Positions 1,692 to 46,305 of a stretch of DNA of 64,000 nt are shown here, in pieces (the stretch's first letter is position 1; each line of letters begins with the position of its first letter). The position numbers were made by a program, and so were the translations under genes. The notes beneath the pieces are model-generated. The model made no database searches, was not told where the DNA came from, and was given only the letters and a program-made list of their open reading frames with translations. Origin of the DNA: a virus (lineage: Duplodnaviria > Heunggongvirae > Uroviricota > Caudoviricetes); the IMG/VR virus record IMGVR_UViG_3300032167_000057, positions 4,886-68,885 of that record. The stretch is one strand, 5' to 3'.

Positions 1692-2504
1692 ATGATTGAT
1701 TATAAAGAGAAATATGGTCAGCACTTAAAACTTTTGCAGTCTCCATATGACTCAAGAGATTATCGCTTTGGTGATGCAGTTCCTATGAGGGCATATGAAA
1801 TTCCAAAAGAATATTTTACACCAGATGCAGGATTTACATATGACCAAGAAAATAGTTCTCAGTGCTGCGCTTCGGCCTATAATTATATTAGATTTTTACA
1901 AGAAAAAGATAAAGAACAGTCTGAAATTACTGTTCCATTTTGTCCATCATTTACATATGCGAATCGTATTGATGGCGAAGATTTTGAAGGTATGTATTTA
2001 CGTTCATGTTGTAAAAAGGGGCGTGAAGGTTCTGTTGTTTGGGGAGAAATGAAATATCCTAACACTTATTTCGGTTCAAAGAATGAATTTTTATCTCGTA
2101 AAAAAGAATTACTTGAAAAAGCAGAACCATTTAAAATCAGTAGTTTTTATACTTGTAGAAATCGTAAAGAAATTCAAGTTGCGATTATGGAAACTAAGGC
2201 GGTTTTAATTGGTGTTCCTGTTTATGAATGTTTCTATACACCTGATGAAAACGGTATTATCCATTATGTAAAAGGTCAAGAAAATCAAGGTGGACACGCA
2301 ATCGTAATTGATGGCTGGTGTGAAATTGATGGTAAATTCTATTGGCGCATTAAGAACAGCTGGAATGCAAATTGGGGCAATCTTGGTGATGGTCATGCTT
2401 ATCTTCCATCTGAATACCCATTTATGGATGATGTGTATGTAATTTGCGATTATGTAATGGATATGAAATTTAAAGAATATAAAGAAAAATATTATGGAGA
2501 GTAG
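1692..2504 (+). CDS. papain-like (C1 family) cysteine peptidase
   Basis: Has an SQCCASAYNY motif (resembles the Q-x-C-G-S-C-W-A active-site Cys of papain), a GGHAIVIDGW His motif and an NSWNANWGNLGDGHAYLP (N-S-W) motif typical of papain-fold peptidases. Confidence 0.6.
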   Translation: MIDYKEKYGQHLKLLQSPYDSRDYRFGDAVPMRAYEIPKEYFTPDAGFTYDQENSSQCCASAYNYIRFLQEKDKEQSEITVPFCPSFTYANRIDGEDFEGMYLRSCCKKGREGSVVWGEMKYPNTYFGSKNEFLSRKKELLEKAEPFKISSFYTCRNRKEIQVAIMETKAVLIGVPVYECFYTPDENGIIHYVKGQENQGGHAIVIDGWCEIDGKFYWRIKNSWNANWGNLGDGHAYLPSEYPFMDDVYVICDYVMDMKFKEYKEKYYGE

Positions 2505-2548: not shown

Positions 2549-3997
2549 ATGTCAAAGATAGAAAAAGCGGTACAATTTATGGAGCAAATTGCTGCTGATA
2601 ATAGCCACGGCTATGCTCAAGATAATAGAAATGGCTCTCCTGATTATGATTGCTCTTCTCTTGTAGGTACAGCCTTGTCAAAAGCTGGATTTAAAGTAAA
2701 TCCTTTAAGCACAACAAGGACTTTATATAAACAGTTGATTGATTGTGGTTTTAAAGAAATTGGAGTTAATGAGGCTCGGAAGCGTGGGGATATTTTCTTA
2801 ACAGCAGGAAAACATGTAGTAATGTGTACGGATGCAAATAACATTGTACATGCTAGTTTGAATGAAAAAGGAACTATTAAGAACGGGCAAGTTGGTGACC
2901 AGACGGGAAAAGAGATTTGTTGCCGAAGTTTTTATACTCCAAGTTATAAATGGACTTACCATTTGAGATATGTAGAAAACACTCCTACCCCATCCACTAT
3001 TAAGGGCGTTGATGTTTCTGGTTATAATAAAATAACTGACTATCAAGCAGTTAAAAATGATGGTGTACAGTTTGCAATTCTAAAAATCATTCGTAAGGAT
3101 TTGAATTTAGATAAACTGTTTGAAACTCACTTGAAAGGTTTTAACAAAGTAAATTTACCTATCATTGGGGTTTATAATTATTCATACGCCACATCAGTTG
3201 CTAAATCACGGTCTGATGCTTCTATTGTGGTTAAATACTTAAAACAGTTTAATATGCCAAAATCTACAGTGATTTATATGGACGTTGAAGATAATTGTCA
3301 GAAAGGGTTGGGTCAGTTACTTATTGATATGATTAATGCTTATCAAGAAGTAATTGAAAAGGCTGGTTATAAATTCGGACTTTACACAGGGTTATCTTTC
3401 TGGAATTCGTATATTAAACCATATAAATCCAGTTTAAAGTGTAATGTAGAGTGGATTGCTAGATATAAAAAGGGATATTCACCTATGCAATTTGCAGAAA
3501 ATCCAGAAGAAAGCAGTAAACCGAATATTGGCACTCCAATTGAAGGGTATCAATACACAAGTTCAGGTCAAGTTTCTGGTATTCAAGGCTCTGTAGACTT
3601 AAATATTCTTTATAACACTTCCACTTTATCTTCCTCTCCAGTAATCAAAAATATTGTACGAGTGGATACAACTCTTAATGTTCGTAATAAACCTAATGGA
3701 GATATAAAGGGGAAACTCTACAATGGTGATGAAGTAGACATTTCAAATTATCAAGACGGATTTTACAGGATTGGTATAAACCAATGGGTATCTGCTACTT
3801 ATATTCAGTCAACACGAGGTATTGTGAATGCAAATATATTAAATATACGTAAAGGCGCAGGAACTAATTATGCAGATATAGGGAACATACCGAGGAATAC
3901 TATTATTCCTCTGTTAAAGGAGAAAAAAGGATGGTATTACACGGTATATGATTCAATAGGCGGTTGGGTGTCTGCTGAATATATACACGGACTATAA
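2549..3997 (+). CDS. multidomain endolysin: NlpC/P60 peptidase + GH25 muramidase + SH3 cell-wall-binding repeats
   Basis: The N-terminus reads GYAQDNRNGSPDYDCSSLV...GDIFL...HVVMC...IVHA (NlpC/P60 Cys-His-His). The middle reads GVDVSGYNKITDYQAVKNDGVQFAILKI (GH25 lysozyme signature). The C-terminus carries two SH3-like repeats (NVRNKPNGDIKGKLYNGDEV / NIRKGAGTNYADIGNIPRNT). Confidence 0.85.
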   Translation: MSKIEKAVQFMEQIAADNSHGYAQDNRNGSPDYDCSSLVGTALSKAGFKVNPLSTTRTLYKQLIDCGFKEIGVNEARKRGDIFLTAGKHVVMCTDANNIVHASLNEKGTIKNGQVGDQTGKEICCRSFYTPSYKWTYHLRYVENTPTPSTIKGVDVSGYNKITDYQAVKNDGVQFAILKIIRKDLNLDKLFETHLKGFNKVNLPIIGVYNYSYATSVAKSRSDASIVVKYLKQFNMPKSTVIYMDVEDNCQKGLGQLLIDMINAYQEVIEKAGYKFGLYTGLSFWNSYIKPYKSSLKCNVEWIARYKKGYSPMQFAENPEESSKPNIGTPIEGYQYTSSGQVSGIQGSVDLNILYNTSTLSSSPVIKNIVRVDTTLNVRNKPNGDIKGKLYNGDEVDISNYQDGFYRIGINQWVSATYIQSTRGIVNANILNIRKGAGTNYADIGNIPRNTIIPLLKEKKGWYYTVYDSIGGWVSAEYIHGL

Positions 3998-4813: not shown

Positions 4814-5521
4814 TTATTGTTTTATCTTTTTTTGAATTAAATTACGCAATTTGGTTTGATATTTATCATAATGAGTTGACCAATCAAATTCATGTGTATA
4901 AGTGGAAATCAGGGTTTGTAAAGTTGCTAACTCATGTCTATGATGTTTGTGTGACGCAATCAATGGGAGTTCGTTGATTTCATTTTCGTAAAATAGAATT
5001 GTTGCTACAATACATCTTTTATTTGGAAATAAAGCAATTAATCTCTGTTGATTACCTAAAACCATTTCAGCTATGGCTATCACTTTATTCGCAATTAATG
5101 CCTTTCTAAATAAATCATATCTTTCTTCAGATTGCATATCAGGTACTAAATAATAAGATTTATAAATTAATAAATCTCCTATTTCTTTAGATTTGCAAAA
5201 ATAACTTACAGTTAATTGTTTATCCTGTTCGGTAGTAATTGAATCAATTTCAGTTTGTTCCAATACAACATATTTATCTTTCGCATATTGATAACCTTTT
5301 ACAATATCTTCGTTTGTAATTTCTTTCTTACATGAAGGACAATATTTATGGTATCTCACTCTTTCCTTAGAATCTTTACATAATTGATTTAATTCAATAC
5401 TATTATCACAGTTAACTTTCATCATTTTTACTGGGATTTGTAAAGTTTGAAACCGTATAGTGGTTATATAAGAAGCGTTCATTTCATTATCTCCTTTGCA
5501 CGATTTGCATTTAGTATGCAT
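4814..5521 (-). CDS. Ku-like DNA end-binding protein (bacterial Ku/YkoV family, short form)
   Basis: SIELNQLCKDSKERVRYHKYCPSCKKEITNEDIVKGYQYAKDKYVVLEQTEID matches the bacterial Ku core (IRFHQ...R.RY.RVC..CG.EV...DI.KGYE...yV.ltd.ei). The N-terminal IRFQTLQIPVKMMKV resembles the Ku FGLVNIPVKLY beta-strand. Confidence 0.55.
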   Translation of the reverse strand: MHTKCKSCKGDNEMNASYITTIRFQTLQIPVKMMKVNCDNSIELNQLCKDSKERVRYHKYCPSCKKEITNEDIVKGYQYAKDKYVVLEQTEIDSITTEQDKQLTVSYFCKSKEIGDLLIYKSYYLVPDMQSEERYDLFRKALIANKVIAIAEMVLGNQQRLIALFPNKRCIVATILFYENEINELPLIASHKHHRHELATLQTLISTYTHEFDWSTHYDKYQTKLRNLIQKKIKQ

Positions 5522-6315: not shown

Positions 6316-7023
6316 TTAAAAATCGAGGACGATATAATTTACCTTTTTAGGATTTACGACGATTTCATGCTCATTACGCGCGTTTAAATAGCATAATATA
6401 GCATCTTTTTGTACTTTACCCTTTAATATAATTGGTGTGCCCATTTGATATCTTTCAGCAAACCATTTGGCTGTATTATAGTTTGTTGTCCAAGAGAAAC
6501 CATTTTTATATTTAGGGTCACGAACTCCTCTATAAATAGTTACTTCTTCATCCAAGTTTTCTAAGAACCGTAATTCGTCTTCGTCCATTAAATATTCTTT
6601 TTTGGCTTTTTTAAACCATCCTAATAATTCACGACGAGTAACATTTGTTTCATCACAAATCACTTCCATTTGTACATATAGCTCTGACAGCAATTCACCA
6701 AAATCTTTTTCAGATAAATAGTCATGAATATATTTAAAGAAAGTAAGTTTATATGGAGTTGTAATGAACATGGCGAGACTGAATACATCAGGTCTACTTT
6801 TGATTACTTGCTCCATTTCTTTTTTATATTCATAAAAAGAATTTTCATCTTCAAACAGATTAAACATTTGTCCATTATTTGCGCTAAATAAGGCAGAAGT
6901 TGTAAAGAATGGATGTGACACAAATAAATCACCAAATGAACCAACTGGTACTGGGTCTACGTGCAACATACCAATTGCTATGTGTTGTATTTCTTTCATT
7001 TTAGTTTCTTTGATGCGAGCCAT
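6316..7023 (-). CDS. hypothetical protein; possible ADP-ribosyltransferase-like fold (weak)
   Basis: 235 aa. The C-terminal half has IYRGVRDPKY (Arg), FSWTTNYN (S-x-T-T) and ARNEHEIVV (E-x-E) in an order reminiscent of the R-S-E ART triad. This was read by eye and not verified. Confidence 0.45.
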   Translation of the reverse strand: MARIKETKMKEIQHIAIGMLHVDPVPVGSFGDLFVSHPFFTTSALFSANNGQMFNLFEDENSFYEYKKEMEQVIKSRPDVFSLAMFITTPYKLTFFKYIHDYLSEKDFGELLSELYVQMEVICDETNVTRRELLGWFKKAKKEYLMDEDELRFLENLDEEVTIYRGVRDPKYKNGFSWTTNYNTAKWFAERYQMGTPIILKGKVQKDAILCYLNARNEHEIVVNPKKVNYIVLDF

Positions 7024-7025
7024 TA

Positions 7026-7178
7026 TTTACCCTCCACTTTTGTCACATCTATATCCATTACATCACCTGTTGTGATATTTGAGGCAAACCATTTACGGGC
7101 CACATCTAACAGTTGTCCATCTTCCAGTTCACAAGTCACTATATTCTCTTCTATTCTAATTATTGTGAGTTTCATACT
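7026..7178 (-). CDS. small hypothetical protein (50 aa)
   Basis: Minus-strand ORF MKLTIIRIEENIVTCELEDGQLLDVARKWFASNITTGDVMDIDVTKVEGK, tightly coupled between the integrase and the 6316-7023 gene. Confidence 0.3.
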
Positions 7179-8574
7179 ATTCCTCGCTTTTGTAATATTC
7201 ATTATATATGTCTATATTGTTAATTATAATATCATTAATTGCAAGAGTTTTATTTATAGGAAGCTTAACAAGTTTTCCATTTTCAATATAGCCAAGCATT
7301 CCTTCTTCTATCTCTATTAGTGAAATACCCATTTTGCTCAATGATTCTACTACTCCTATAGGAGTAGTATTTACTTGCTTTTGAACATTGTTAAATAATT
7401 TGATAGCAGATGCTTTTTGAGCATTAATAATATGAACATATATATTTAACGTAATTTCTATACTAGAGTGTCCTAATAACTCACTGACAGTCTTAATATC
7501 AACGCCTTTAAGTATCAAATAAGAACCAAATGTGTGTCTTAAAGAATGTAATCCACTTTTCTTTATCTTGCAATTTGCATTCTTTTGCATAAGGTTTAAA
7601 GTGCGTGTAACATTACTATGATTGCTAATTGTAACCCCATCCTCAGTGAAAACATAATAATTAGGGTCTTGGTTTTTCCATAAACCTTTAAGAATTAATA
7701 AAGCAATGTCTGATAATGGAATGCTGCGCTCGCTAGAATATGTTTTAGTACCATCTGTATCTACATAAATATGTTTGGGTTTATCACCCTTTGGATTTCT
7801 TATTTTTGCAATAACGTGCGTTATTGTAATGATGTTTAGGTCTAAATTAACATCCTTCCATTTAAGTGCAAGAGCCTCAGATATACGCAAACCAGTATAC
7901 ATGATAAATATAACCATATGAGCATTTAGTCCATATTTGTTTCTACCAGTACTATGCATTTTTTGAAACTCATCATAGAGTTTTAACATATCTGATTCTT
8001 CTAAGAATGGTACTTTACGCCTTTTGGTTTTTACGTTCTTTTCAGAAGGAATGATGATGTCTTCCATATAATTACATGGAGCATACTTATCTGTTTCATA
8101 CATATACTCGCAAATCTGATTTAATAACGATTGCGTTCTTTTAATTGTACCTCTCGAATATTCTTTTTGCTTTACACAATAATCATCTATATAATCTTGG
8201 AAAATATCTTCGCTTAATGAAGCAATTTGAGTATTACCCAGAAATGTATCTTTAATTCGATTGTCTAACATATCTGCATACGAATCAATAGTTACTTGTT
8301 TTGTATCTGAACCATCATTAGGTTTTATATCTTCTATCCAATGCTTGCAATAATGATAGAATGTTTCCTGCTTAACATTCTTAGCATCGAATTTATGCTT
8401 ATCCTTATTTACTAATTCAAACTGTTCTCTCTTTTGATTAATTTCTTTTTCTGTTTTACCATAGAATGTGTGATAATCATCTTTCCAATCATAATACTTT
8501 CTATAGTATTTATATTGAACACCATTAATTGTACGAGTACCCCAATTACCTTCTCCGTTTTTTCTTTTAGCCAT
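7177..8574 (-). CDS. int: tyrosine integrase (phage integrase family)
   Basis: Catalytic signatures LRISEALALKWKDV (box I Arg) and HSLRHTFGSYLILKGVDIKTVSELLGHSSIEITLNIYVH (box II with the H-x-x-R...Y region). It sits next to the attP-like repeats and a tRNA. Confidence 0.9.
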   Translation of the reverse strand: MAKRKNGEGNWGTRTINGVQYKYYRKYYDWKDDYHTFYGKTEKEINQKREQFELVNKDKHKFDAKNVKQETFYHYCKHWIEDIKPNDGSDTKQVTIDSYADMLDNRIKDTFLGNTQIASLSEDIFQDYIDDYCVKQKEYSRGTIKRTQSLLNQICEYMYETDKYAPCNYMEDIIIPSEKNVKTKRRKVPFLEESDMLKLYDEFQKMHSTGRNKYGLNAHMVIFIMYTGLRISEALALKWKDVNLDLNIITITHVIAKIRNPKGDKPKHIYVDTDGTKTYSSERSIPLSDIALLILKGLWKNQDPNYYVFTEDGVTISNHSNVTRTLNLMQKNANCKIKKSGLHSLRHTFGSYLILKGVDIKTVSELLGHSSIEITLNIYVHIINAQKASAIKLFNNVQKQVNTTPIGVVESLSKMGISLIEIEEGMLGYIENGKLVKLPINKTLAINDIIINNIDIYNEYYKSEE

Positions 8575-8903: not shown

Positions 8904-8976
8904 GCTGATGTGGCACAGTCGGTAGCGCACTTCATTGGTAGTGAAGAGGTCACGGGTTCGATTCCCGTCATCAGCT
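8904..8976 (+). tRNA. tRNA-Thr (anticodon GGU)
   Basis: Acceptor stem GCTGATG/CATCAGC, T-arm ACGGGTTCGATTCCCGT, anticodon stem CTTCA/TGAAG with loop TTGGTAG. 73 nt including discriminator T. Confidence 0.8.
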
Positions 8977-8982
8977 TTAAAA

Positions 8983-9012
8983 ATAGGGAAGATATGCAAT
9001 CTTCCCTAAATT
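8983..9012. terminator. bidirectional hairpin terminator
   Basis: AGGGAAGAT-ATGCA-ATCTTCCCT hairpin flanked by T/A-rich tracts. It sits after the tRNA on the plus strand and after xis on the minus strand. Confidence 0.5.
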
Positions 9013-9227
9013 ATTATCTTCGTATTCATTTTAGCATTTTTACTTATCCAATCTATTAAATCATCTTCTGGGATATAATAATCTCTTCCAATCTTAAATT
9101 GAGGAAACCCCTTCGTATTTAATAATTTATATAGTGTTTTATCAGAAGCAATACCTAAATATTCTTTTACTTCCTTACTCTTTAATATGCGTTGTATATC
9201 TATCACACTCCTATTTATAAAACACAT
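9006..9227 (-). CDS. xis: excisionase / HTH DNA-binding protein
   Basis: 73 aa. KEVKEYLGIASDKTLYKLLNTKGFPQFKIGRDYYIPEDDLIDWI is the Xis/MerR-type HTH_17 fold. It is adjacent to attP and int. Confidence 0.6.
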   Translation of the reverse strand: MCFINRSVIDIQRILKSKEVKEYLGIASDKTLYKLLNTKGFPQFKIGRDYYIPEDDLIDWISKNAKMNTKIII

Positions 9228-11943: not shown

Positions 11944-12741
11944 TTAATTAATTCTACTAATCTGTTCATATAGAAGAATATCTTTATCGTTTACAACATA
12001 ATTAATATGCATATGTCCACATAGGTGTTTATTAAACTCTGTCTTTTGTCGCACTTCCTCTAAATATGTAGTTAATATATCTTGGTTATATAAACCATGA
12101 CCCAATAGTGCAATTACACTAGCAGAAGGGCTATGTGTAATAATATAATCAACCTTATAATTATGTTTTCTTAAATTATTCCACCCATTCTGCATTTCTT
12201 CTTCTGAAGGAAGTTCGTGCTCCCACCAAGACAATCCTTTAATTTGATACATATATTTACCTTGCTTATCTAATGCCTTTGCTTTATCTCTCCAATCTTC
12301 ATCTTCATAATCAAGAATACCGTCTGAAATATCGTGAGAACTTGCACCGCCAAAAGCAAAGAATTTTTTATCTTCTATTGTAAATATTTCCCCTCTTCTT
12401 AATCGTAAAACGTGAGGACGTAGTTCATTAACCAATCCCCCATTCCATTCTTTAATTGGGAATGTGTCTAAACGAGGGATATTGTCATGATTACCATCTA
12501 CAAAAATAGTGGTAAACGGTTTTTCTTCTAACCAATCTAACAAATATTTTTCCTGTCTGGTTTCTTCTCTGTGCCATATAATTCCAAAATCACCAAGAAT
12601 AATGACTACATTTTCATCTTTATTGCCGCTAAACCCCTTTTGTTCATAAAAATTATCTGTACTAAATCTAACGGGGTTACCATGTATATCTCCCGTTACC
12701 CAAATAGACATAATAATCACCTCTTTTCTGTGTATAGACAT
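11944..12741 (-). CDS. calcineurin-like metallophosphoesterase (Ser/Thr phosphatase family)
   Basis: Motifs VTGDIHGN, GDFGIIW (GDxxDRG-like) and GNHDN. Confidence 0.75.
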   Translation of the reverse strand: MSIHRKEVIIMSIWVTGDIHGNPVRFSTDNFYEQKGFSGNKDENVVIILGDFGIIWHREETRQEKYLLDWLEEKPFTTIFVDGNHDNIPRLDTFPIKEWNGGLVNELRPHVLRLRRGEIFTIEDKKFFAFGGASSHDISDGILDYEDEDWRDKAKALDKQGKYMYQIKGLSWWEHELPSEEEMQNGWNNLRKHNYKVDYIITHSPSASVIALLGHGLYNQDILTTYLEEVRQKTEFNKHLCGHMHINYVVNDKDILLYEQISRIN

Positions 12742-16077: not shown

Positions 16078-16474
16078 ATTTCTTGTTAATCCTCTTTATT
16101 ATTTGTCAATTCCTTAATTAAATTAGTTGGGTCGTACTTGGAATTATAAACAACCTTTCCTTTATCATTTGTTACAACATAAAAATCTTCATATTCTGTT
16201 CTACCCCAACAATCATAACCATCTGCTCTTCTTTCTATTGTTACTTTTACTCCCACAAAAATCACCTCAATTCAAAATCAAGTTCTGTTTTTATTTAGAA
16301 GAACTAAACGCCAATATATTCTGGCAGTATCTCTAATATCTTATTTATTTCTTCTAATATTGCTTCATCAACTTCTTCTCTTTTTATATCGTTATTATCT
16401 TCAATATTAATTTTTAAGGGTGGTGGTGTAATCATATTTTTACCTCCATTTTCCCAACCAAAGTGTTATTTTAT

Positions 16475-17263
16475 TTACTCAAATACCGATTTAAAAGCTT
16501 CTAAATTACCATCTCTACCACTTGGAATTGCGAATACAACTTTTCTAAAACAATTCTTATACGTTGTTTCTAAACACTCCTTAAAAATCATTGCGACTTC
16601 TACAGGATTCTGTCCGAACACACCACAACCATATGCCCCTAAGATAAGTACTTCCACTTCATTATCCTTTGCAATATCAAGTACAAATTTAATTCTTGAT
16701 TTTAAAACTTTTGTATTCTCTGTATCAGAAACATTCTGATACTTTTGCGCCGCTGATTTGTTGGGAGCTGCACATGTAATTACGTCACGATAGATTTCAG
16801 ACCCATCATATTGAAATACAATATTCGGGGTATATAAACCACGATTCAAATATAACGCTTTGTTCTTATGCTGATTATTCCAATCATAAAAATCTTTAAC
16901 AAACTGAGATAGAACATTATATAAGTAAGAATCATGACACAAACATTCTTCCTGCGCTTTACTACCATTAAGAAACATACCACCAGGATTCTTGTATGAT
17001 GAAAAATTTAGTAATGCAGTTTTACCATCTGAGTATTTACCGGATGCCATAACCGTATCCGCATCTGCAACTATGATTTTTGTAGGTTCTTCTAATTCGT
17101 TTACAATATCTCCGTTACATATAAAATCAGTATCATAAATTTTAGTATTCTTGATGGATTGTGTAATTTTATCTCCGTGTAATTTCTGCATTTCAGTAGT
17201 ATGTTTTCTTGCTCTCTGTGCTCTTTGGTCTTTGTTTTCCCAATATTCTTTTATATATGCCAT
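16475..17263 (-). CDS. bacterial-type poly(ADP-ribose) glycohydrolase-like macrodomain protein (DUF2263/TIGR02452-like)
   Basis: NPGGMFLNGSKAQEE matches the PARG signature GGG-x(6-8)-QEE. LILGAYGCGVFGQNP is the macrodomain diphosphate-binding loop. Confidence 0.6.
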   Translation of the reverse strand: MAYIKEYWENKDQRAQRARKHTTEMQKLHGDKITQSIKNTKIYDTDFICNGDIVNELEEPTKIIVADADTVMASGKYSDGKTALLNFSSYKNPGGMFLNGSKAQEECLCHDSYLYNVLSQFVKDFYDWNNQHKNKALYLNRGLYTPNIVFQYDGSEIYRDVITCAAPNKSAAQKYQNVSDTENTKVLKSRIKFVLDIAKDNEVEVLILGAYGCGVFGQNPVEVAMIFKECLETTYKNCFRKVVFAIPSGRDGNLEAFKSVFE

Positions 17264-17677
17264 ACTTTATCTCCTATCAAACTTTGTTTTTATTTACTAT
17301 CAAGTGCTCTAAATTGTTTCTTTTCGATGCTAAATGTTTCACATATTAAACTCATAGCGGCAACCAAATCTTCATAATAACCACCGTAACTAAGCTCATC
17401 TAATTCGTCTGCAAGACAATCTAAATTGTCAACTATTTCATATGGTGTCATAATTATCCTCCTTATCAAAGATTTATTTTATCTAGTTTCTTTATACCCG
17501 CCATTAAAATAAAATTGTGCCCATTCACAATTCAAAATTTGATGTTTAGACAATATAATCCAATCAGCTTCTCCATCTTTATTTATATAATTGCAGATAT
17601 AACTATCATGCTCTGTGTCGTTTCTAATATCTTCAAGCGTCATCACATCAATCCCTTCTCCTGACCAAACGTTAATT

Positions 17678-20715: not shown

Positions 20716-21675
20716 TTACATACTCACTCTATCCGCGATTTCCGCATTCTTTGCTTCGTTATAACGTGTATCACCATGTACTCTAGTGAATCCTAAATAG
20801 CCATTCATACGGTCAATTTTCGTAATCATGGAACTTCCACATTTAGGGCAGACATCCATTTCCACTTGCTGATAGCCACAATCTTCACAATAACACATTG
20901 CAAGATTTACCCCCTCATAAAACCCTTTATCCATAGCTCTAAGCACGAGAGTTTTAATTGCTTCCTTGTTATAACCTAAGTTATATCTGACATACTGAAT
21001 TTTTCCACCATTGAAATAATCCCAAAATCTTTCTTCTTTATCTTGTTTTTCAATAGGTGACATTTCTTCAGATACATGACAGTGAAAACTATTACTTACA
21101 TAAGGCTTATCTGACACATTTTCGATAATCCCATACATTTTACGGAACTGTTCTACTTGTAAACCACAAAGGCTCTCAGCAGGCGTTCCATATATTGCAT
21201 ATAGAATATTATCTTCTTCTTTAATTCTATCTACATAGTTCTGAATATACTGCATTACTTCTAAAGCAAATTGTCCATCTTCTCTAATAGAGTTACCATT
21301 ATATAATCTCTGTAATTCGTTTAGAGCAGTAATACCATAACTAATTGTCATAGGAGGAAGAATTGACTTAATCTTCTCTTCTGGTTTTAAATTACCACCA
21401 TATAAACCACCCTCACAGAAAGCAATAGGATTTACACTCGCTCGAAGTTCTCCAATATAATCATAAGTACGCTTATGTAATCCTCTGATAAGTTCAAGAT
21501 AATGTTCCAATACTTCAAAAAAGTCTTTTGATTCTTGTCTTGATTTTGCTAAAATCATCGGTAAATTAAGCGATACAACACCTAAATTACATCTTCCTTC
21601 AAATACTGGCTTGTCATCCTCATCCGCAGGATGCATTCCACCTCTTTCATACCATGGAGAAAGGAATGCACGACA
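20716..21675 (-). CDS. nrdD: anaerobic ribonucleoside-triphosphate reductase NrdD, exon 2 (C-terminal part)
   Basis: CRAFLSPW...GRCNLGVVSLNLPMI aligns to T4 NrdD CRSFLSVW...GRNNLGVVTLNLPRI. The C-terminus has the CEDCGY...CPKCGS zinc ribbon and the glycyl-radical region (GYLGFTRV). The frame is open upstream of the annotated Met back to a TAG at 21676-21678. Confidence 0.85.
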   Translation of the reverse strand, partial: CRAFLSPWYERGGMHPADEDDKPVFEGRCNLGVVSLNLPMILAKSRQESKDFFEVLEHYLELIRGLHKRTYDYIGELRASVNPIAFCEGGLYGGNLKPEEKIKSILPPMTISYGITALNELQRLYNGNSIREDGQFALEVMQYIQNYVDRIKEEDNILYAIYGTPAESLCGLQVEQFRKMYGIIENVSDKPYVSNSFHCHVSEEMSPIEKQDKEERFWDYFNGGKIQYVRYNLGYNKEAIKTLVLRAMDKGFYEGVNLAMCYCEDCGYQQVEMDVCPKCGSSMITKIDRMNGYLGFTRVHGDTRYNEAKNAEIADRVSM

Positions 21676-22524
21676 CTAACTGCTTTCGCAGTTTGGACTA
21701 TATCTTCATCTATTATTCTATTACCAAATAATAGATGCTCGGCACTTCCACATAAGGACTTTCACCTTATATGTACTCTACTCGCTTCTTCGCATAAGTT
21801 TTTCTCTTATGCTATGCTTTCGATAGTCTCTTGACTTTCTTCAACGTATTCAAATAAATAATCATAATTATTAGTTAATTTTTCATCTTTTAATATCATG
21901 GTTACTGTCTTTCTATTAATATGTAAATCTTCACACATACTTCTTATAGATTTATAAGTTTTAAAATATTTACCATTTTTCTTATAATAGACGTTTATCG
22001 CATGACATCTTGACTTATATTTATATAATTTGTTATCATAACCATGTTGGGTGTTATCACTATTTGTACACCACTCTAAGTTATCTATATTATTATTTAA
22101 CTTATTTCCATCTTTATGATTGACTTGTGGTAGATTATTTGGATTAGGAATAAACGTATTGGCGACCAACCTATGTACACGTTTATAACATTTCTTACCA
22201 TTTGAATCTCTTAAAACACATTGGTAATACCCAACGGTATCTATCCACTGACCAATTTCTTTGTTTCGTTTAGTATCATAAATCACACCGTTAATGTTGA
22301 TTCGATATCTCTCAAAACCTTGAATTTCTTTATTTATAATTATTGTTTCTATATAAAATTCACCTTCTTTAAAAGTGAATACGTTGAATATTAGCACAGG
22401 ATTATCATAATAATGACTTCCCCTGTTAGCCAATTCATTAGCCATCATTTCCTATGGTTACTATTCGTTGAATTGACACCTTATATATATAAGTTCACCG
22501 AGTTTTACATGAGCTATCATATTA
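21676..22524 (-). mobile_element. group I self-splicing intron in nrdD carrying an HNH homing endonuclease ORF
   Basis: Exon 1 ends ...SPMG (GGU) at 22525 and exon 2 starts CRAF at 21675; a direct join recreates the conserved NrdD SPMGCRSF junction. The S element AAGATATAGTC lies about 20 nt upstream of the terminal G (UAG) on the minus strand, and the 849-nt insert contains the HNH ORF. Confidence 0.8.
21807..22448 (-). CDS. HNH homing endonuclease (intron-encoded)
   Basis: NHKDGNKLNNNIDNLEWCT is an HNH motif. The N-terminal DNA-binding region is typical of phage HNH homing endonucleases. The ORF sits inside the nrdD intron. Confidence 0.8.
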   Translation of the reverse strand: MMANELANRGSHYYDNPVLIFNVFTFKEGEFYIETIIINKEIQGFERYRININGVIYDTKRNKEIGQWIDTVGYYQCVLRDSNGKKCYKRVHRLVANTFIPNPNNLPQVNHKDGNKLNNNIDNLEWCTNSDNTQHGYDNKLYKYKSRCHAINVYYKKNGKYFKTYKSIRSMCEDLHINRKTVTMILKDEKLTNNYDYLFEYVEESQETIESIA

Positions 22525-23727
22525 ACCCATTGGACTAATCACTCTTTTATATTTCTTATACATTTCAGGTACATATCCATTACCAGTTAAAGATAACCAA
22601 TCAGGATACATGGTTTTACTACTACAATCAATTCCTGCATTAAATACATCTGCATTTGGATACTGTTCAGAACCATCTCCGTGAAGTTCTTTATCATATA
22701 AGAATACAATCTTAGGGAATAAAACAGGACGCTTAAATCCTTTCTTACCTTGGCCCTCACTATGTACTTGGAGTAAAGTAATAGCGGCCATTTTGCCAAA
22801 TATATCTGTTGCTAATCCTATAGTCATGGTAACGAATGGGTAATCGCCCCTAGAAGAACCAACTGTATTTAACTTATATTCAATGCCTTGCCAACCTTGT
22901 TCAAAGTCTCTTCTGACTTTATCAAGAGCATATTTTATAGCTCCTTCGTCTTTAACTCGACCATTCCAAGACACTTGACTTAATACATCATTTTCAACTT
23001 TTCTATATTCTTCAATATATTTTCTATAAGACTTCTCTGCATAAGGTGCTAAAATCTTATCAACTTCTGGTACAGTAAACCCTCCGTATTGCTGTGCAGC
23101 TGTTGAAAGGATAATATCTCCCATAACATCGAATGCAGTATCAAGTGAATTAGGCTCGTTATACCAAACGTTCCCCATTTCAAAACCGTTATGCATAATA
23201 TGGCCTACACGCATCAAACAGCAATTAAAGGAATCAAGTCTAGCACTCCTATCATGGATATAGATGTACCCATCTTTCATTGCTTGCTTTTCATCAAGTG
23301 TTAAGAAAAACTTCTTATATAATTCACTGCTCAGTTCGTTATAAATTAAACTTCTCTTTGTTGCCACCAAAGCAGAATCAGTATTAGCATTACTCTTATC
23401 ACCAATGTATCTAATTGCTTGACTTCTGGCGTATACTTTATCCATCATATGAACAAAGTCTTTTTTATAATTTCTATATTCTTTATACATTTTCCCCACT
23501 ATTGGATATAATTCTTCCAATACGGCTTCAACGATATTATGCATTTCATAAATTTCAGTTTCTTCTAAATCATTTTCAACGAGTTTTTCCCAGACGGCGT
23601 TACAAATCAACTGATAATCATTAGCATTTAATTCTACCATTGCTCGTCTAGCAGCTTTATTACAAGCATTAATTATTTTTTGTTCATTATAATCTTCTAA
23701 TGTGCCATCTTTTTTAATAATCCTCAT
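22525..23727 (-). CDS. nrdD: anaerobic ribonucleoside-triphosphate reductase NrdD, exon 1 (N-terminal ATP-cone + catalytic core)
   Basis: ATP-cone MRIIKKDGTLEDYNEQKI. YIYIHDRSARLDSFNCCLM...QQYGGFTVPEVDKILAPY aligns to T4 NrdD IIHVHDIDYS..NCCLV...HQYGGTTFANVDKVLSPY. Ends at MYPDW...SPMG. Confidence 0.9.
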
Positions 23728-27257: not shown

Positions 27258-28712
27258 CTAGATTTGAAGTCGCTCTGCTTGTACAATTAATTCCTTTTCA
27301 TCCGTAACTTCTACAATTTTGTTAATGGTGTGATTAAAAATCGAATCGTTATACACTTTTAAGAAGAATTGGTCTCCCATTCTCATACCATGACATAATA
27401 AAAGCGTTCCTCGTTTTAACCAACTTTCTTCCAATCTTTTCTTTTTACCATTCTCTTCTGATACCTGAGATATGGTTTTGTTATAATAAGCATAAGCTCC
27501 CTTATTTGTTTTTACTGTTACTACTCCATATCTAGTCAATAAAGTAAATGAATGATGATTATTATCATTCGCTAATACTGTTCCAGCCAAACGGCTAATT
27601 TTATATTTAGGAAACGCTCGTGGTTCTCCGTTAATACGACGGGTGTACCACTCATAAGGTTCTGGTTCTTCTGGTAAATCAAAGTAATTGACAATTCCAT
27701 AATGCTTTTCATCTACCCCGTCTAACTCATGTTCCGCATCATAATAGCTTAATGCTTCCATATTCCAATGAGGTACTGTACCAGAAGCGTGTTTCTCCCA
27801 TAATTCATTAAATAGTTTTTGATTGTATAAGTTTAGTGTTTCTTCTTTACTCATCCAATCTCTAAACGTTTTTAATTTGGTTTCGACTTCTTTCAAGAAG
27901 TTCTTTTCAGAGATAACATAATACGAATTCTTCACTTCAATTACTGCATCTTCGGAGAAATTAGCCACGAAAAATGATTGAGAATTGCTATCTAATAGAA
28001 AATATCTGTCATGATAACCGCACTTCGGAACTTTTTTATCTGGGTTTACATATAATCTATCTAACCCATCTGGATGTAAAACATAATCTTTAAAGTTCAG
28101 AATACGTATAATAATGTCAAACTCATCAGGAATCATTTTCATTTCAACCATTTTACCCATTTGAGACATGGTGAGATTATCACATGGTTTAAACACATAA
28201 TTTTCTAAATATAACCGCATAGTTTTAGTACGGTCTGTATTGTGTAGTTCGGTAAAACTACCGCCTTTGATTAACTTAATCATTTGTGCATTTGTGAGTA
28301 ATTTGGTGACGATAAGTTTGTCACAGAAATCTTGAAATGAATTATATGGTCGGTGCTCTAGAATTGTTTGTACTGCTTCTGTTCCGATTCCATTGATTGC
28401 TTTAAGACTGAATAAGATACGATTATTTTGTTTATCCACTTTAAAACCAAAATCCGCTTCATTAATAAGTGGTAAAGCTACTTCTGTACCACTCTGTTTA
28501 ATTGAAGCAATAGCCGTAGACATTTTTCCATAGTTAGTTCCATCGTTTGCATCTTCATTATATGACCCAGAATCTACAACCAAATTGGCCGCAGACCAAT
28601 AGATTGAACCATATTTATAACATAAATTCAGTTCCTGCAATCCCAATAAACTGTAAGCAAGACAATGAGAACGATTAAATCCATCATTTATACCCCCGAT
28701 TTCTCGGTATTT
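27258..28712 (-). CDS. dnaE: DNA polymerase III alpha subunit (DnaE-type), exon 2 (C-terminal part; exact 5' boundary uncertain)
   Basis: Upstream of the annotated TTG start the frame reads ...GFNRSHCLAYSLLG, which matches DnaE YGFNRSHAVAYS. The HhH region AINGIGTEAVQTILEHRPYNSFQDF is also present. The frame is open back to a TAG at 28713-28715. Confidence 0.75.
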   Translation of the reverse strand, partial: KYREIGGINDGFNRSHCLAYSLLGLQELNLCYKYGSIYWSAANLVVDSGSYNEDANDGTNYGKMSTAIASIKQSGTEVALPLINEADFGFKVDKQNNRILFSLKAINGIGTEAVQTILEHRPYNSFQDFCDKLIVTKLLTNAQMIKLIKGGSFTELHNTDRTKTMRLYLENYVFKPCDNLTMSQMGKMVEMKMIPDEFDIIIRILNFKDYVLHPDGLDRLYVNPDKKVPKCGYHDRYFLLDSNSQSFFVANFSEDAVIEVKNSYYVISEKNFLKEVETKLKTFRDWMSKEETLNLYNQKLFNELWEKHASGTVPHWNMEALSYYDAEHELDGVDEKHYGIVNYFDLPEEPEPYEWYTRRINGEPRAFPKYKISRLAGTVLANDNNHHSFTLLTRYGVVTVKTNKGAYAYYNKTISQVSEENGKKKRLEESWLKRGTLLLCHGMRMGDQFFLKVYNDSIFNHTINKIVEVTDEKELIVQAERLQI

Positions 28713-28965
28713 CTATAGGGATTAGACTATATCTTTAGAGTAAAATACTCTATTCGGCACTTCCATCTGTGCTAATCTCAGATGTACGTAATAGTCGTTA
28801 CACCTTCCTTATGTATAAGGCTTGGCACGGTATTACCTTATCTTACGACTTAGGCTTTCACCGTTAGCATAACAAAAATGTTACACACCGTTTTTGCATA
28901 CGTTCACCGAATTTTACGTGAGCAGGTTTGTTTACCCACGTTGCATGAAAATTAATACAAACCAC
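28713..28965 (-). mobile_element. ORF-less group I intron in dnaE (boundaries approximate)
   Basis: A roughly 260-nt non-coding insert splits DnaE between the conserved ...IEKFA and GFNRSH segments. It contains the S element AAGATATAGTC (minus strand 28735-28725) and shares with the nrdD intron a 12-mer (TCGGCACTTCCA on the plus strand), CTTTCACC and similar spacing to a terminal UAG. Confidence 0.65.
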
Positions 28966-31421
28966 ACATAACGAATTAATTTATTTGATAATTGTTTTTC
29001 TTTTGCGTTTTGTAAAAATTCCTGCTGTAATATTTCAAAATCTTTTGGAGACTTCTTCGCTACAGATTTTCTCAACTTGTCTGCCCATGCTAATGAAAAA
29101 CCACCAATCTTAGGATGCATAACTAACAGAAATAAGTATTCCTGCGCTTCACAAATACCATAGGAAATACCTAAAATATCCTTTAATATATCTTGTTCTT
29201 CCTCTGTAAGTCCCATACTAGACATTTCCTGATACCATAAATTAATATCATTTTTAAATCTAGCATACTTCTCAAGCGGTGCTTCCCCACCCTTTTCTTG
29301 TGCCATAAGTCTCATAACTGAGTTTAAAGCTGCTAAATCATCTACTGAATGTGGTTTTGATAACGAAATGGCTTGAATCCCCGAAGCCTTCTCCATCTGG
29401 AAAAAGCTTAATACTTTATGTTCCCACAGTAATTTCCACATTTCTTCTGCATCACGTTCTAAAGTATATATACCTAAATACTTTTCATAAGTATCTTTGA
29501 GAGTTCCTTGCCACTCAATAACACCATCCTCTAATAGTAAATTCATACAAGCATGAATCTTGTCGAGTGCTTCTACAGACAGACAGTCGAATTTAATTAA
29601 TGATAATTTTTCACATTCATGTAAATCAAATTGAGTAATAATATCTCCTGAATTGGTTTTCATCTGTGCTGCTACTTCTGTAAATGGTTCATCTGTTAAA
29701 ATAATGCCCCCAGCATGAGAACCTACCCCATTTACCAAACCTTCAAACTTCTGTGCACACTCCCATAATTCAGGGTATCTTTCCATTTCACGAACAAATT
29801 CCATTACAGGGCGGTTATCTTCATCTCCAAAATACATCTGTTTAAAGGAACGTAATTGTCCTCTATCTGCTACAATTAATGAAGATATATACTGTGCCGT
29901 ATCATTATCTATACCCAATCCTCTAGCACTGGTTAAAATAGCACTACGTGGTTTTTCGGTAGATAACGTCATAACTTTACTAATTCTATCTGCACCATAA
30001 GTGTCACGGAATTTTCGCATAACCGCTTCTCGTTTAGAACCCTCAATATCTACATCAATATCTAATGGCGACGCACGTTCGGGATTTAAAAATCTCCAGT
30101 GAAATGTTTTCGTTTTTTCTTTTAAAGGGTTAATCTGTGTAATATTTAATATATAATTTAGAATAAATCCTACACCAGAACCTCGGCCACATCCTACTAA
30201 TGATACTTCCCATAAGAGTTCTACAATATCTTTAACATCTAATAAATAGGCCGACCAACGTACTTTCATCTTATCCGAAGCAATAATTAATGAATCCAAA
30301 CATTCTGCAATTGCCTCATAAGTTTCTGTGTTGCAAAGTTCTTTTGGCTTTCTTTCCAGTTCATTCACGATTTCTCTACACAAATGTCTATCTGGCTCAT
30401 ATTCAGAAAGGAAGAAATAATCCAAATGAGGAATCAATGGTTGATATTTTTTGAATAAAGATGGGTCTGGTTCAGATGAATTAAATGGTACATACGGAAT
30501 ACGCATCGGTTTGCGCAGGTCATATATTTGCACCATATCATAAATCAATAAAGTATTATCCAGACCTCTTTGTACCGCTTCTTTCCCTATATAAGCATCC
30601 ATAAAGTCATGAATTTCTTCCGAAGTCATCACATAAGTTGTTTCATAAAAATCATCAACTTCTCTATCTCCGTCCTGACTTTCTAAAAAGATTTTGTGGA
30701 ATTTTCTATCTTCTTTCTTTAAGTAATGGGAATCCGTGCTGATAATATAAGGCGTGTTTGTGATTTCAGATAAGCGAATTAGATATTGATTAACTATAAT
30801 CTGTTCCATTTTAGGCGAAGGTTGTAATTCCAAAAAGAAATAACCTTGTCCAAAAATTTCATTCATATATTCAACCCAACTAATACATGCGCCCCATAAT
30901 TCGGGGTCTTTTGTGGCTTCAAATTCCAATATTTTGGCAGGTAAAATACCTCCCAAGCAAGCAGAAGAACCGATAATATGACCTTTATATGTCTCCAACA
31001 TAGTTTCTAATTCGTCATAATATGTTGGTACACGCATCATAACATTCATAAAAGCATTGTTTAACCATGATTGTGTACTTAATTCTCTAATACCCTTATG
31101 TCCAAAAGAATCTAAAGCCAGTAATATAAAGTGCGGATATTTCTGTCCTTTCTTATTTTCTGGTGTTACATCACGAGTGCATAAATAGATTTCATTTCCC
31201 AAACCTATTTTAAAATCTACCCATTCTGGATTATCTTTATGGCTATAGAAATATTCTATTGCCGATAAGCTAGAAGTGACTGATTCATGTCCTGTTAGGC
31301 AAATTCCTTTTAAACCTATATCATGTGCATATTGGATAATATCTGATACCTTGTTAATTGAATCACGTATACGCAAATTACTATCTCGGTCTGTGTGGTT
31401 GTGTATACTAAAATAACTCAT
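28966..31421 (-). CDS. dnaE: DNA polymerase III alpha subunit (DnaE-type), exon 1 (PHP + palm/fingers)
   Basis: N-terminal PHP domain MSYFSIHNHTDRDSNLRIRDS (HxH). LLALDSFGHKGIRELSTQ resembles DnaE LLAKNEEGYKNL. The 3' end of the annotated ORF (IRYVWFVLIFMQRG) is probably read-through into the intron. Confidence 0.8.
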
Positions 31422-44267: not shown

Positions 44268-45200
44268 CTATACAACGTCATATTCTTTTAATTTACGAAA
44301 TACTTGGTATGGTTTCCAATGTCCTCTGCCATATCTATTTAAAATTCTTTGAATTTGAGGATGTTTATATCTACTCTCTAGAGATAAAGACACCTTTATT
44401 CGCTCTGATTCTGTCAGTAAAGACCAAATCATACCACTATCTTTTAATTCTATGGTTTTAATAACAAATTTCTGTTGCTTTGCGTAATTATATAACCTCC
44501 ATTTGATTTTCGTATGTCTAAATTCTGGGTCTAATAATTGTTCATTGTAAGACATAGTAATAGGAAACCGAACAATAAATTCATTTTCCTCTAATAAGAA
44601 ATCCATCGGCGGAGTTGTTTTAGTAGGGCCTCTGCGAAAATATTTTTCGGCAATTGCTTCCTGCGTTAACGCCACTAAATCATCCGAAATAGTTAAACAT
44701 GTTCCATCTGCCAATACCAATTCTTTAGTTTCAATATGTAAACTATCTTTGGTTAATTCAGCAATTTGTTGAACAGTGAAACCTTCATAAATACAGCGTA
44801 CTACAAATCGGTCTATTTTATTTAGAAACCCTGTTGTGGCAGCTTCTGTTAATTCTTCTGGTGTAATATAATCTGCTGGGCCTTTTATTTCTTTAAGCGT
44901 AGCAAATGGCATCGTTATTAAACCGCTGTCTGGTGTGGTAAATTCCATATCTAAACACCATAAACCATATTTACGCAACAAATAAAAATAAACAACCAAT
45001 GTAGCATATGTTTTATTTTTTAATAAATCTATTTCATAAATAGTTCTGACTTCATCTTGTGTAAAACAACATACATCTTTATCATATTGCACTTCTAACT
45101 CTTCCAATGTTTCTAAAAAATGGACAACATTAATAGAATAATGAATATCATAATCAGTTAAATACTGTATAAATAATTGCTTCCGTTCCGCGTTGTACAT
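44268..45200 (-). CDS. hypothetical protein
   Basis: 310 aa, immediately downstream of the second recombinase. Confidence 0.4.
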   Translation of the reverse strand: MYNAERKQLFIQYLTDYDIHYSINVVHFLETLEELEVQYDKDVCCFTQDEVRTIYEIDLLKNKTYATLVVYFYLLRKYGLWCLDMEFTTPDSGLITMPFATLKEIKGPADYITPEELTEAATTGFLNKIDRFVVRCIYEGFTVQQIAELTKDSLHIETKELVLADGTCLTISDDLVALTQEAIAEKYFRRGPTKTTPPMDFLLEENEFIVRFPITMSYNEQLLDPEFRHTKIKWRLYNYAKQQKFVIKTIELKDSGMIWSLLTESERIKVSLSLESRYKHPQIQRILNRYGRGHWKPYQVFRKLKEYDVV

Positions 45201-45267: not shown

Positions 45268-46305
45268 TTAATCTTTAGCCATGACAAAACCATCATGAAT
45301 TTGTTTAACAATGATATCGGCCGAACGCTGTTTTACATCAGAATCATTCATAACTACATAACGCTGGGTAGTACTAATATTAGAATGACCTACCGCTCGT
45401 CGTGCAAATTCTATATCTCCAGTTTCCTTTATAATATTAGTTACAAATGCATAACGTATTTTATGCGGTGAAATCCCTTCGCCTAAAACCGCTTCTGAGT
45501 ATTTATGAACAATTTCTGCTATACTATCTGTTGATAATCGCGCTTTTTGTCGAGAAATAAATAACGCATCCAGCTGAACACCCCATTCACGCAACAGTTC
45601 TTCTCTATCATATAACCAATCATTTACATATTGCATAATGGAACTGATTTGATAAACATGGGTTTTTCGCCCCTTATCAATAACTGTTAATTCTCCCGTT
45701 TCCAAATTAATATCTTCTACATTAATTTCGCTTAACGCACTACGACGCATACCAGTCAAAATAAATAATAATAAAATCAAGAAATCTCTTGATTTCCATT
45801 TATTCTGAATTTTACGAGCTCGTGTAGAACCAGCCCCAAATAATACAGCGCCCAACATTTGTTGCAATTCATCAGGAGTAATCTCAGGCCGTTGTACCTT
45901 ATCTTCTCCTTTTGGACGTTTAATTTCTGTTATTGGATTAATTTCGATTAACTTATTTGAGTATAAATACCCCATAAAGTTTTTTAATACAGTATAAATT
46001 AACTGTTGATAAAAAATTGATGTGGGAGTAACTTTAGCAACACCATTTTGTATAACCGTTTTGGTCTTTTTAGCAACCATATAACGTGCTACATTCTGTG
46101 CTGCTTCTTCTGGTGTCACTGTGGTTGAATCTTCTTTTATACTTTTATAAAAGTTCTCAATTATTCCAATATATTTATGAGCAGTTTTAATTTGAGCACC
46201 ATAAGAAAAAGAATAACAATAATCTTTTACATATTGAGGCAGACTTTCTAATTTTTTATCAATTTTATCCTGATAACATAATTGAGTTTCAAATCTACCA
46301 TTCAT
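45268..46305 (-). CDS. tyrosine recombinase (XerC/D-like, second phage-integrase-family enzyme)
   Basis: RRSALSEINVEDINLETGELTV (box I Arg) and HKIRYAFVTNIIKETGDIEFARRAVGHSNISTTQRYV (H-x-x-R ... Y). Confidence 0.8.
   Translation of the reverse strand: MNGRFETQLCYQDKIDKKLESLPQYVKDYCYSFSYGAQIKTAHKYIGIIENFYKSIKEDSTTVTPEEAAQNVARYMVAKKTKTVIQNGVAKVTPTSIFYQQLIYTVLKNFMGYLYSNKLIEINPITEIKRPKGEDKVQRPEITPDELQQMLGAVLFGAGSTRARKIQNKWKSRDFLILLLFILTGMRRSALSEINVEDINLETGELTVIDKGRKTHVYQISSIMQYVNDWLYDREELLREWGVQLDALFISRQKARLSTDSIAEIVHKYSEAVLGEGISPHKIRYAFVTNIIKETGDIEFARRAVGHSNISTTQRYVVMNDSDVKQRSADIIVKQIHDGFVMAKD

Follow-up and report, generated by a model that had tools for sequence, protein, structure and literature searches.

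A Full-Length PARG Gene in a Phage Genome

We analyzed a stretch of 64,000 nucleotides from a Caudoviricetes genome (IMG/VR record IMGVR_UViG_3300032167_000057, positions 4,886 to 68,885; hereafter called the window), in which an ATG-initiated open reading frame (ORF) on the minus strand (16475..17263) encodes a 262-aa bacterial-type poly(ADP-ribose) glycohydrolase (PARG; TIGR02452 / PF10021 / DUF2263). The position agrees exactly with that given in a preliminary description made from the sequence alone. A Shine-Dalgarno sequence AGGAG (17271..17275, minus strand) can be read from the sequence with a 7-nt spacer to the ATG at 17263-17261, and this start codon is supported because homologs align from residue 1. 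Scans for regulatory signals around the gene were uninformative, as 21 promoter-like sites were found versus 27 expected from shuffled sequences, and the terminator scan returned one weak terminator-like site. An antisense ORF (16308-16736, plus strand) overlaps PARG, but its seeming conservation in many loci is a shadow of the PARG coding sequence and it is not a gene.

The preliminary description had recognized a PARG/macrodomain protein and proposed to compare it with PARG/DUF2263 and MacroD. In this comparison the PARG profiles matched far above threshold: TIGR02452 (NCBIfam) with E=3e-57 (194.2 bits, cutoff 50; residues 31-258 on profile positions 27-265 of 266) and PF10021 PARG_cat_microb ("Microbial-type PARG, catalytic domain") with E=9.2e-26 (91.4 bits, cutoff 23.5). 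A phmmer search of the PDB sequences revealed matches to PARGs exclusively, including those from D. radiodurans (5ZDA-5ZDG, about 2e-26) and T. curvata (3SIG, 1.6e-23). A MacroD-type assignment was rejected, as the PF01661 Macro profile stayed below threshold (E=0.027, 14.8 bits versus a cutoff of 22) and the fold matches to MacroD2 and Af1521 (E~1e-5, TM-score about 0.4-0.5) ranked far behind the PARGs. Assignment as a DarG-type or other known defence component was rejected as well, since neither PARG nor the ADP-ribosyltransferase (ART) candidate described below matches any PADLOC family at E<=0.01. The PARG protein also matches no family in PHROGs.

The two motifs on which the preliminary description was based, a GG-x8-QEE signature and a phosphate-binding loop, are both present. 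The catalytic loop NPGGMFLNGSKAQEE (residues 92-106, nt 16946..16990, minus strand) contains the signature variant GGM-X7-QEE (G94-G95-M96-X7-Q104-E105-E106), and the macrodomain diphosphate-binding loop is LGAYGCGVFGQNP (residues 208-220, nt 16604..16642, minus strand). In the HMMER alignment the catalytic loop pairs with "NPGGGFLGGAQAQEE" of the D. radiodurans enzyme (DrPARG), which places E106 opposite the catalytic Glu E112, and the diphosphate loop aligns to "LGAWGCGVFRNDP" (GAWGCGVF). Activity of DrPARG is abolished by the E112A mutation (PMC6445106). In an alignment of 41 homologs with 62-80% identity, G94, G95, Q104, E105 and E106 are invariant, as are all positions of the loop GAYGCGVFGQ (209-218) with the exception of A210, which is conserved in at least 90%. 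GAYGCGVF is present in 116 of the 120 closest homologs. The textbook signature is GGG-X6-8-QEE, but the third Gly is replaced by Met in 105 of these 120 sequences (GGM 105, GGG 4, GGA 2, GGK 1, GGL 1), and because the position varies in the clade we do not regard the Met as disqualifying. In the region of the ribose cap the sequence alignment stops at DrPARG D260, paired with S248, and a conserved Arg after it is not evident: position 250, an Arg in the window PARG, is variable in the clade, whereas N253 is invariant. The ribose cap also varies within the PARG family, as DrPARG has a Thr (PMC6445106).

An AlphaFold2 model built with the 41 homologs (pLDDT 86.7, pTM 0.87) contains a long N-terminal helix (residues 11-39). 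Comparison of this model with the PDB using Foldseek confirmed the PARG fold, with TcPARG (the T. curvata enzyme, 3SIH) at E 3.5e-18 and a TM-score of 0.84/0.81 over 278 alignment columns, and with the DrPARG 5ZD* structures at a query-normalized TM-score of 0.72-0.76. The top 13 matches are all PARGs and ordinary macrodomains start at E~1e-6. Neither of the two findings named in the preliminary description as refuting it, the lack of a macro/PARG fold or a QEE motif that varies among homologs, was obtained. Taken together, the gene encodes a full-length bacterial-type PARG with an active site that is intact by sequence, in which the macrodomain is preceded by the helical N-terminal extension that characterizes the family.

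Phage Genome and Gene Content of the Window

The window is the interior of a large SPbeta-like phage genome of about 131 kb, and its host probably belongs to the Lachnospiraceae. Its GC content is about 32%. Twenty-four metagenome contigs encode an identical PARG protein, and gene order agrees in the 6 places listed; on the longest contig listed, a JGI contig of 131,507 bp, the window spans about 61-125 kb and PARG is located at about 77.7-78.5 kb. Upstream of the window lie large proteins, one of them with a tail-fibre Collar domain, which run into the lysis cassette. Past the other end, a related 139-kb contig (locus L175, 1-923) encodes a PF05183 RdRP-like polymerase, which we take to resemble the YonO RNA polymerase of SPbeta, and it is because of this resemblance that we call the phage SPbeta-like. 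When 21 kb of the window were compared by megablast with 50,697 deposited phage genomes, nothing was returned; the phage itself is thus absent from this collection, and relatives were found at the protein level only.

The replication and recombination genes of the window comprise a split DNA polymerase III (PolIII) alpha subunit, a RecD2/Dda-like helicase, DnaB, a primase, a PD-(D/E)XK nuclease and a Sak4-like annealase, accompanied by a dUTPase, two tyrosine recombinases, homologs of MrpR and YorF, and three tRNAs. PARG sits in a long co-directional (leftward) early/replication block, with small ORFs without assigned function as immediate neighbours, and is an accessory gene of this block. 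The integrases and an Xis-like gene suggest that the phage is temperate.

A papain-like Peptidase_C1 protein (1692-2504, plus strand) is encoded directly upstream of a multidomain endolysin (2549-3997; Amidase_5 + ELLD + GH25 + SH3), and a Ku homolog (PF02735, 3.5e-36) is encoded at 4814-5521 on the minus strand; no record with this start was found for it, and the gene call of the contig has 222 aa. A tRNA-Thr(GGT) gene (8904-8976, plus strand) is flanked by two minus-strand genes, a tyrosine integrase (7177-8574) and an HTH_17 Xis-like gene (about 9006-9227), and this region may represent the attP/integration module. A second recombinase pair lies amid the replication region on the minus strand, consisting of a tyrosine integrase (45268-46305) and an adjoining MrpR-like recombinase (44268-45200). 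Two genes of the window are split. The anaerobic ribonucleotide reductase NrdD is divided on the minus strand into an ATP-cone + NRDD part (22522-23727) and a second NRDD part (20716-21636) with an HNH_3 endonuclease ORF (21807-22448) in between, which looks like a homing-endonuclease or intron insertion. The PolIII alpha homolog consists of two minus-strand ORFs (28932-31421, PHP + pol3-alpha + finger; 27258-28646, HHH_6, with a TTG start) separated by a gap of about 285 nt.

Distribution of PARG and Its Genomic Neighbours

PARG homologs are rare in deposited phage genomes: only 20 of 50,697 contain one, all with less than 46% identity. These comprise 15 Lak megaphages, two records of Bacillus phage G (gp114), two uncultured phages of about 0.6 Mb and one fecal contig of 23 kb. 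In metagenome-derived data, by contrast, they are common, with 2,801 homologs at E<=1e-10. In IMG/VR we identified 95 relatives, mostly on viral contigs of 90-220 kb, of which 80 were kept (54 of them on contigs of at least 90 kb), and grouping at 85% identity resulted in 20 clades. PARG is thus a recurrent accessory gene of large gut phages and no one-off. The nearest relatives in bacterial genomes (55-67% identity) were all found in Lachnospiraceae, namely in [Clostridium] symbiosum, Lachnospiraceae A4, Acetatifactor, Blautia and Fusicatenibacter, which suggests this family as the host clade and as the source of the gene. We rejected the idea that these bacterial loci represent prophages related to the phage of the window, as PARG is all that they have in common with it.

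To describe the neighbourhoods, all ORFs within +-10 kb were clustered in 89 PARG loci from phages and metagenomes, and 79 loci from bacterial genomes were analyzed separately. The most recurrent neighbour in the phage loci is a metallophosphoesterase family, which is always encoded on the same strand and occurs in 8 of the 20 PARG clades. It abuts PARG (<=~40 nt) in two clades and in one bacterial genome locus, with spacings of 4-36 nt (loci L064, L083 and, from the genome, L132). In the window the corresponding gene (11944..12741, minus strand) encodes a 265-aa protein (PF00149 8e-09, phrog_1649 1e-32) and is located 3.7 kb downstream of PARG. The metal-binding motifs of the family are invariant and we consider it a candidate functional partner of PARG. 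Among solved structures no relative was detected (best E=0.055 for Lmo2642 and 0.28 for lambda phosphatase), and in PADLOC the protein matches the candidate-system model PDC-S10 alone (3.8e-10).

Furthermore, a 118-aa protein without known function, RlaP (PF10127) and an HNH endonuclease each occur near the phage PARG in 5 clades, and a CCA-adding/PolyA_pol+HD enzyme, DUF2828-DUF7788-vWA, Band_7 and ClpP in 4 clades each. Tight spacings were also observed for RlaP (3 nt) and the CCA-type enzyme (55 nt). Single homologs are accompanied by an RNA ligase, an AAA_33 kinase and a metallophosphoesterase, by RtcB and a PIN protein, or by RlaP, two metallophosphoesterases and SIR2, and in one phage locus KptA adjoins RlaP at a distance of 6.6 kb from PARG. 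On a 508-kb contig (locus L011, homolog P0112), PARG is found among SIR2, GmrSD, RlaP, two metallophosphoesterases and an intein-containing DNA methylase; this contig is either a megaphage or a dense defence/mobile island.

De novo clustering of the 79 bacterial loci revealed that in 8 Lachnospiraceae/Acetatifactor loci PARG is followed on its strand, after about 66 bp, by a gene for a KptA/Tpt1 RNA 2'-phosphotransferase (PF01885, 8e-49) (L103, L106, L107, L113, L114, L115, L121 and L130), whose PARGs are 55-61% identical to that of the window. In these loci the two genes apparently form a two-gene operon, and in the literature searched we found no description of such a writer/eraser-type pairing of PARG and KptA. 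An isochorismatase-family gene abuts PARG in 5 of the bacterial loci.

An ART-Like Gene in the Same Phage

The preliminary description had also pointed to a weak ART-like candidate with the motifs YRG, SWTTN and NEHE. This ORF exists (6316..7023, minus strand) and encodes a protein of 235 aa with two domains, the C-terminal one of which (~158-235) is a compact ART-like domain with YR165G, S177WT and E218xE220. An ART fold was found. The catalytic motifs of the R-S-E class (cholera-toxin-like, ARTC) are placed on the secondary-structure elements expected for them: R165 is located in strand 160-167, S177-W-T179 in strand 177-179 with helix 182-190 coming next, and E218-x-E220 where strand 220-223 starts. 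The R-S-ExE triad is invariant in 18 sequences, and in 72 representatives with 26-48% identity S177 is invariant while each of R165, E218 and E220 is retained in at least 90%. The protein matches no Pfam or NCBIfam family, its single family match being phrog_4776 of unassigned function, and one of the 72 relatives matches ART-PolyVal PF18760 (E=0.0036). Because there is no significant match to a curated ART family, we refer to the protein as ART-like and do not name it a member of one. The closest known proteins are the compact R-S-E ARTs (the Rhs toxins TreX/TreTu, AcrIF11, ART-PolyVal and T4 Alt/ModA/ModB). The spacing from R to S is very short in the window protein (12 residues) and, unlike these ARTs, it has a conserved N-terminal domain of about 155 residues in which H37 is invariant and P38 conserved in at least 90%.

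The statement that the same element carries PARG and an ART-like candidate is correct as far as the presence of both genes is concerned, but the two families are not linked in a conserved manner. A conserved phage ART-PARG module was rejected, as the pairing occurs in 1 of the 89 phage and metagenome loci, which is the window's own, and in none of the 79 bacterial ones. The ART-like gene is therefore a separate accessory gene that is not demonstrably linked to PARG. The integrase, a 50-aa DUF3006-like ORF (7023-7175) and the ART-like gene follow each other with gaps of <=1 nt. The ART-like gene is not proposed to be cargo of a nested mobile element, since this tight packing is not conserved in the contexts of the homologs.

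Possible Role of the Phage PARG

In enzymes of this family the macrodomain cleft binds ADP-ribose (ADPr) via a diphosphate loop of the GAYGCGVFGQ type. The second Glu of QEE, which corresponds to E106 of the window PARG, catalyzes hydrolysis of the alpha(1''->2') ribose-ribose O-glycosidic bond and frees ADP-ribose; this bond occurs in poly(ADP-ribose) (PAR) and also in ADP-ribose attached to the backbone 2'-OH of RNA. The bacterial PARGs SCO0909 and DRB0099 (DrPARG) are the sole hydrolase type that reverses the 2'-OH RNA ADP-ribosylation by RhsP2, and they shield E. coli from this toxin to the same degree as the cognate immunity protein (PMC11833690). In addition, bacterial PARGs remove ADPr from 5'-phosphate ends of RNA and DNA, which are made by KptA/TRPT1, and RNA/DNA ligase and PNK/phosphatase genes share the operon of DRB0099 (PMC11833690). 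The TrcR translational-stress regulon of Anabaena includes the TIGR02452 gene, which is induced along with RtcB and a slipin (PMC10272220), and RlaP, CCA-adding enzymes, calcineurin-like phosphatases, KptA and Macro are recognized parts of an RNA-repair/NAD-ADPr toolkit of jumbo phages (PMC7824862).

From the recurrent neighbours together with the fitting literature we therefore favour an eraser of ribose- or phosphate-linked ADPr. To this reading, in which the phage PARG removes ribose- or phosphate-linked ADP-ribose, most probably from RNA or other nucleic-acid ends, as an orphan immunity/repair enzyme, we assign about an even chance of being correct. The enzyme would act during infection or in the lysogen, and its target would more probably be the ends of RNA or nucleic acids than long PAR chains. 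Such marks could originate from ART toxins of the host or of competitors, or arise as side-products of KptA-type RNA-end chemistry, and their removal would keep the translation apparatus usable. PARG might thus serve as an "orphan immunity/antitoxin-like" eraser within the RNA-repair/anti-defence toolkit that is common in large phages, possibly together with the recurrently linked metallophosphoesterase. The counter-defence role put forward in the preliminary description is supported as plausible by the precedent of other phage erasers and by the genomic contexts, while we infer both the substrate and the role.

Several observations weigh against an RNA-directed eraser. The 64-kb window contains no KptA, RNA ligase, RlaP or CCA enzyme; the direct neighbours of PARG are the small ORFs mentioned above, and the metallophosphoesterase is 3.7 kb away and has no PDB relative that would indicate its substrate. 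The phage-type neighbours are rare in the 79 bacterial loci (metallophosphoesterase 3/79, RlaP 2/79), and the KptA-PARG operon counts as approximately one evolutionary event because its 8 loci belong to a single lineage with 76-89% identical KptA. No matched random-gene control stands behind the neighbour counts, and genes of these kinds generally abound in the accessory regions of large phages. Moreover, PARGs are not expected to act on the linkages produced by the best-known anti-phage ARTs, which are base-linked ADPr in the case of DarT and adenine-N6 in the case of CmdT (PMC11833690).

A more far-reaching version, which we consider rather unlikely, is that PARG and the recurrently adjacent metallophosphoesterase constitute an undescribed counter-defence/RNA-repair module of large phages. 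Here PARG would strip ADPr from phosphate ends or the 2'-OH of RNA (or cleave the 1''-2' glycosidic bond in gcADPR, the signal of Thoeris), and the RNA end or the ADP-ribose set free would then be processed by the phosphoesterase. If true, no PARG-type anti-defence enzyme would precede it, and gut Firmicutes would by implication make widespread use of ribose-linked RNA ADP-ribosylation as a weapon against phages. Bacteria are increasingly found to employ ADP-ribosylation of DNA and RNA as a major weapon in their conflicts with phages and with one another. No hydrolases other than PARG-type enzymes are known to act on 2'-OH-linked RNA ADP-ribosylation, and the literature searched describes no phage role for them. 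With its 262 aa the phage PARG is an easily expressed candidate to ask whether ribose-linked RNA ADP-ribosylation targets phages and to find the host toxins involved. Should it just trim PAR or be a passenger gene, this would be a routine annotation.

Apart from the RNA-directed eraser, the life style of the phage leaves room for lysogenic-conversion immunity, in which a temperate phage would provide its Lachnospiraceae lysogen with PARG against ADP-ribosylating toxins of competitors (RhsP2/Tre-type), to the benefit of the host and not of lytic growth. The integrases and the Xis-like gene of a probably temperate phage fit this idea, as do the close homologs in Lachnospiraceae genomes in non-phage or mobile contexts and the protection against RhsP2 in E. 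coli, where bacterial PARGs match the cognate immunity protein (PMC11833690). We still regard it as unlikely, as PARG lies inside the co-directional early/replication block and does not occupy the position of a typical moron, equipped with a promoter and terminator of its own, and the strong recurrence in very large phages (Lak megaphages, phage G) suggests a role in infection. Degradation of protein-linked PAR made by a PARP-like enzyme of host or phage, comparable to C. difficile CD160 and the PARP/PARG of Herpetosiphon, would be the textbook activity of the family (TcPARG, DrPARG, CdPARG; PMC8120803, PMC5966428, PMC6445106), and active PARPs are encoded by some Clostridia and PARPs also by some jumbo phages (PMC7824862). 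However, bacterial PARPs are sporadic, neither the window nor the precomputed Pfam annotations of the examined contig stretches showed a PARP-like gene, and no PARP family is among the recurrent PARG neighbours, which makes classical PAR metabolism quite unlikely in our assessment.

The ART-like gene would offer a source of marks within the phage itself. PARG could reverse or time-limit marks set by this protein, similar to the reprogramming by T4 Alt/ModA/ModB but in a reversible manner. An ART-fold protein with a conserved R-S-ExE triad is indeed encoded on the same strand about 9.5 kb from PARG, and surveys of jumbo phages propose "toggles" of ART and Macro (PMC7824862). This writer-eraser pair nevertheless appears decidedly unlikely. 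The ART-like family, searched by hidden Markov model (HMM), is found within +-10 kb of PARG in 0 of the other 88 phage and metagenome loci and in 0/79 genome loci, and the three IMG/VR homologs of the ART-like protein are located on contigs that are not among the 80 kept PARG loci. The chemistry does not fit well either, as R-S-ExE ARTs typically mono-ADP-ribosylate Arg and bacterial PARG leaves the protein-proximal mono-ADPr in place, DrPARG being inactive on Glu- and Ser-linked mono(ADP-ribose) (PMC6445106). Another conceivable substrate is soluble, and by hydrolysis of ADPr-derived signals (the 1''-2' bond of the Thoeris signal gcADPR, O-acetyl-ADPr or ADPr-1''P) PARG would blunt NAD-based defence. 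On chemical grounds the ribose-ribose 1''->2' linkage attacked by PARG is also present in 1''-2' gcADPR. The isochorismatase-family gene next to PARG in 5 bacterial loci belongs to a family that includes nicotinamidases, and SIR2 is found near PARG in one locus. SPbeta-like phages are moreover classic Thoeris targets with anti-Thoeris genes. Macro domains of jumbo phages are also predicted to degrade ADPr-derived signals (PMC7824862). We nonetheless consider signal degradation very improbable, since the cyclic substrate is sterically unlike a PAR terminus, known anti-Thoeris proteins are sponges, this locus has no Thoeris-related context and our literature search found no paper linking gcADPR and PARG.

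Comparison With Known PARGs and Phage ADP-Ribose Erasers

The characterized bacterial PARGs from T. curvata (3SIG/3SIH), D. radiodurans (DRB0099, 5ZDA-5ZDG), S. coelicolor (SCO0909) and C. difficile (CD160) share the family HMMs and the fold over the full length with the window PARG. At about 28-30% identity, the QEE pair, the GG of the signature, the diphosphate loop and the N-terminal helical extension are all common to them. The window PARG differs in being phage-encoded and in the Met that replaces the third Gly of GGG. In addition, the Arg-Asp "ribose cap" of TcPARG, an ion pair of R268 and D261 which restricts the enzyme to the exo-glycohydrolase mode, is not evident in its sequence.

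Phages are known to carry ADP-ribosylhydrolases of other types, namely AdfN (NADAR) in T4-like phages and DarG2-like macrodomains in ICP1 and chimalliviruses, which like the window PARG are apparently captured from bacteria. These enzymes reverse toxic ADP-ribosylation, thereby permitting infection, and are proven counter-defences (PMC11825919, PMC11481870, PMC13309987). They differ from the window PARG in their NADAR fold or in their DarG/TARG1-like macrodomain class and in removing the base-linked DNA ADPr made by DarT, whereas the chemistry of PARG is directed to ribose-ribose or phosphate-linked ADPr.

The surveys of jumbo phages (Iyer, Burroughs, Aravind et al., 2021, 2022) predict Macro-type enzymes alongside RlaP, CCA-adding enzymes, RNA ligases, calcineurin-like phosphatases and KptA, with predicted roles of the Macro domains of large phages in counter-defence and RNA repair (PMC7824862, PMC9503650). 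The terms "PARG" and "DUF2263" are absent from the main text of both papers, and our literature search found no paper that characterizes a PARG-type enzyme from a phage; judging by their titles, most phage papers retrieved under a similar name deal with ParG, a plasmid partition protein, and not with the glycohydrolase. With about 131 kb the SPbeta-like phage described here is smaller than the usual jumbo phages of these surveys; the neighbour genes of their RNA-repair/NAD-ADPr networks also recur around PARG in our loci. The PARG family itself is well known and phage erasers of ADP-ribose are already established with the NADAR and DarG-like enzymes, to which the window PARG adds a secure annotation.

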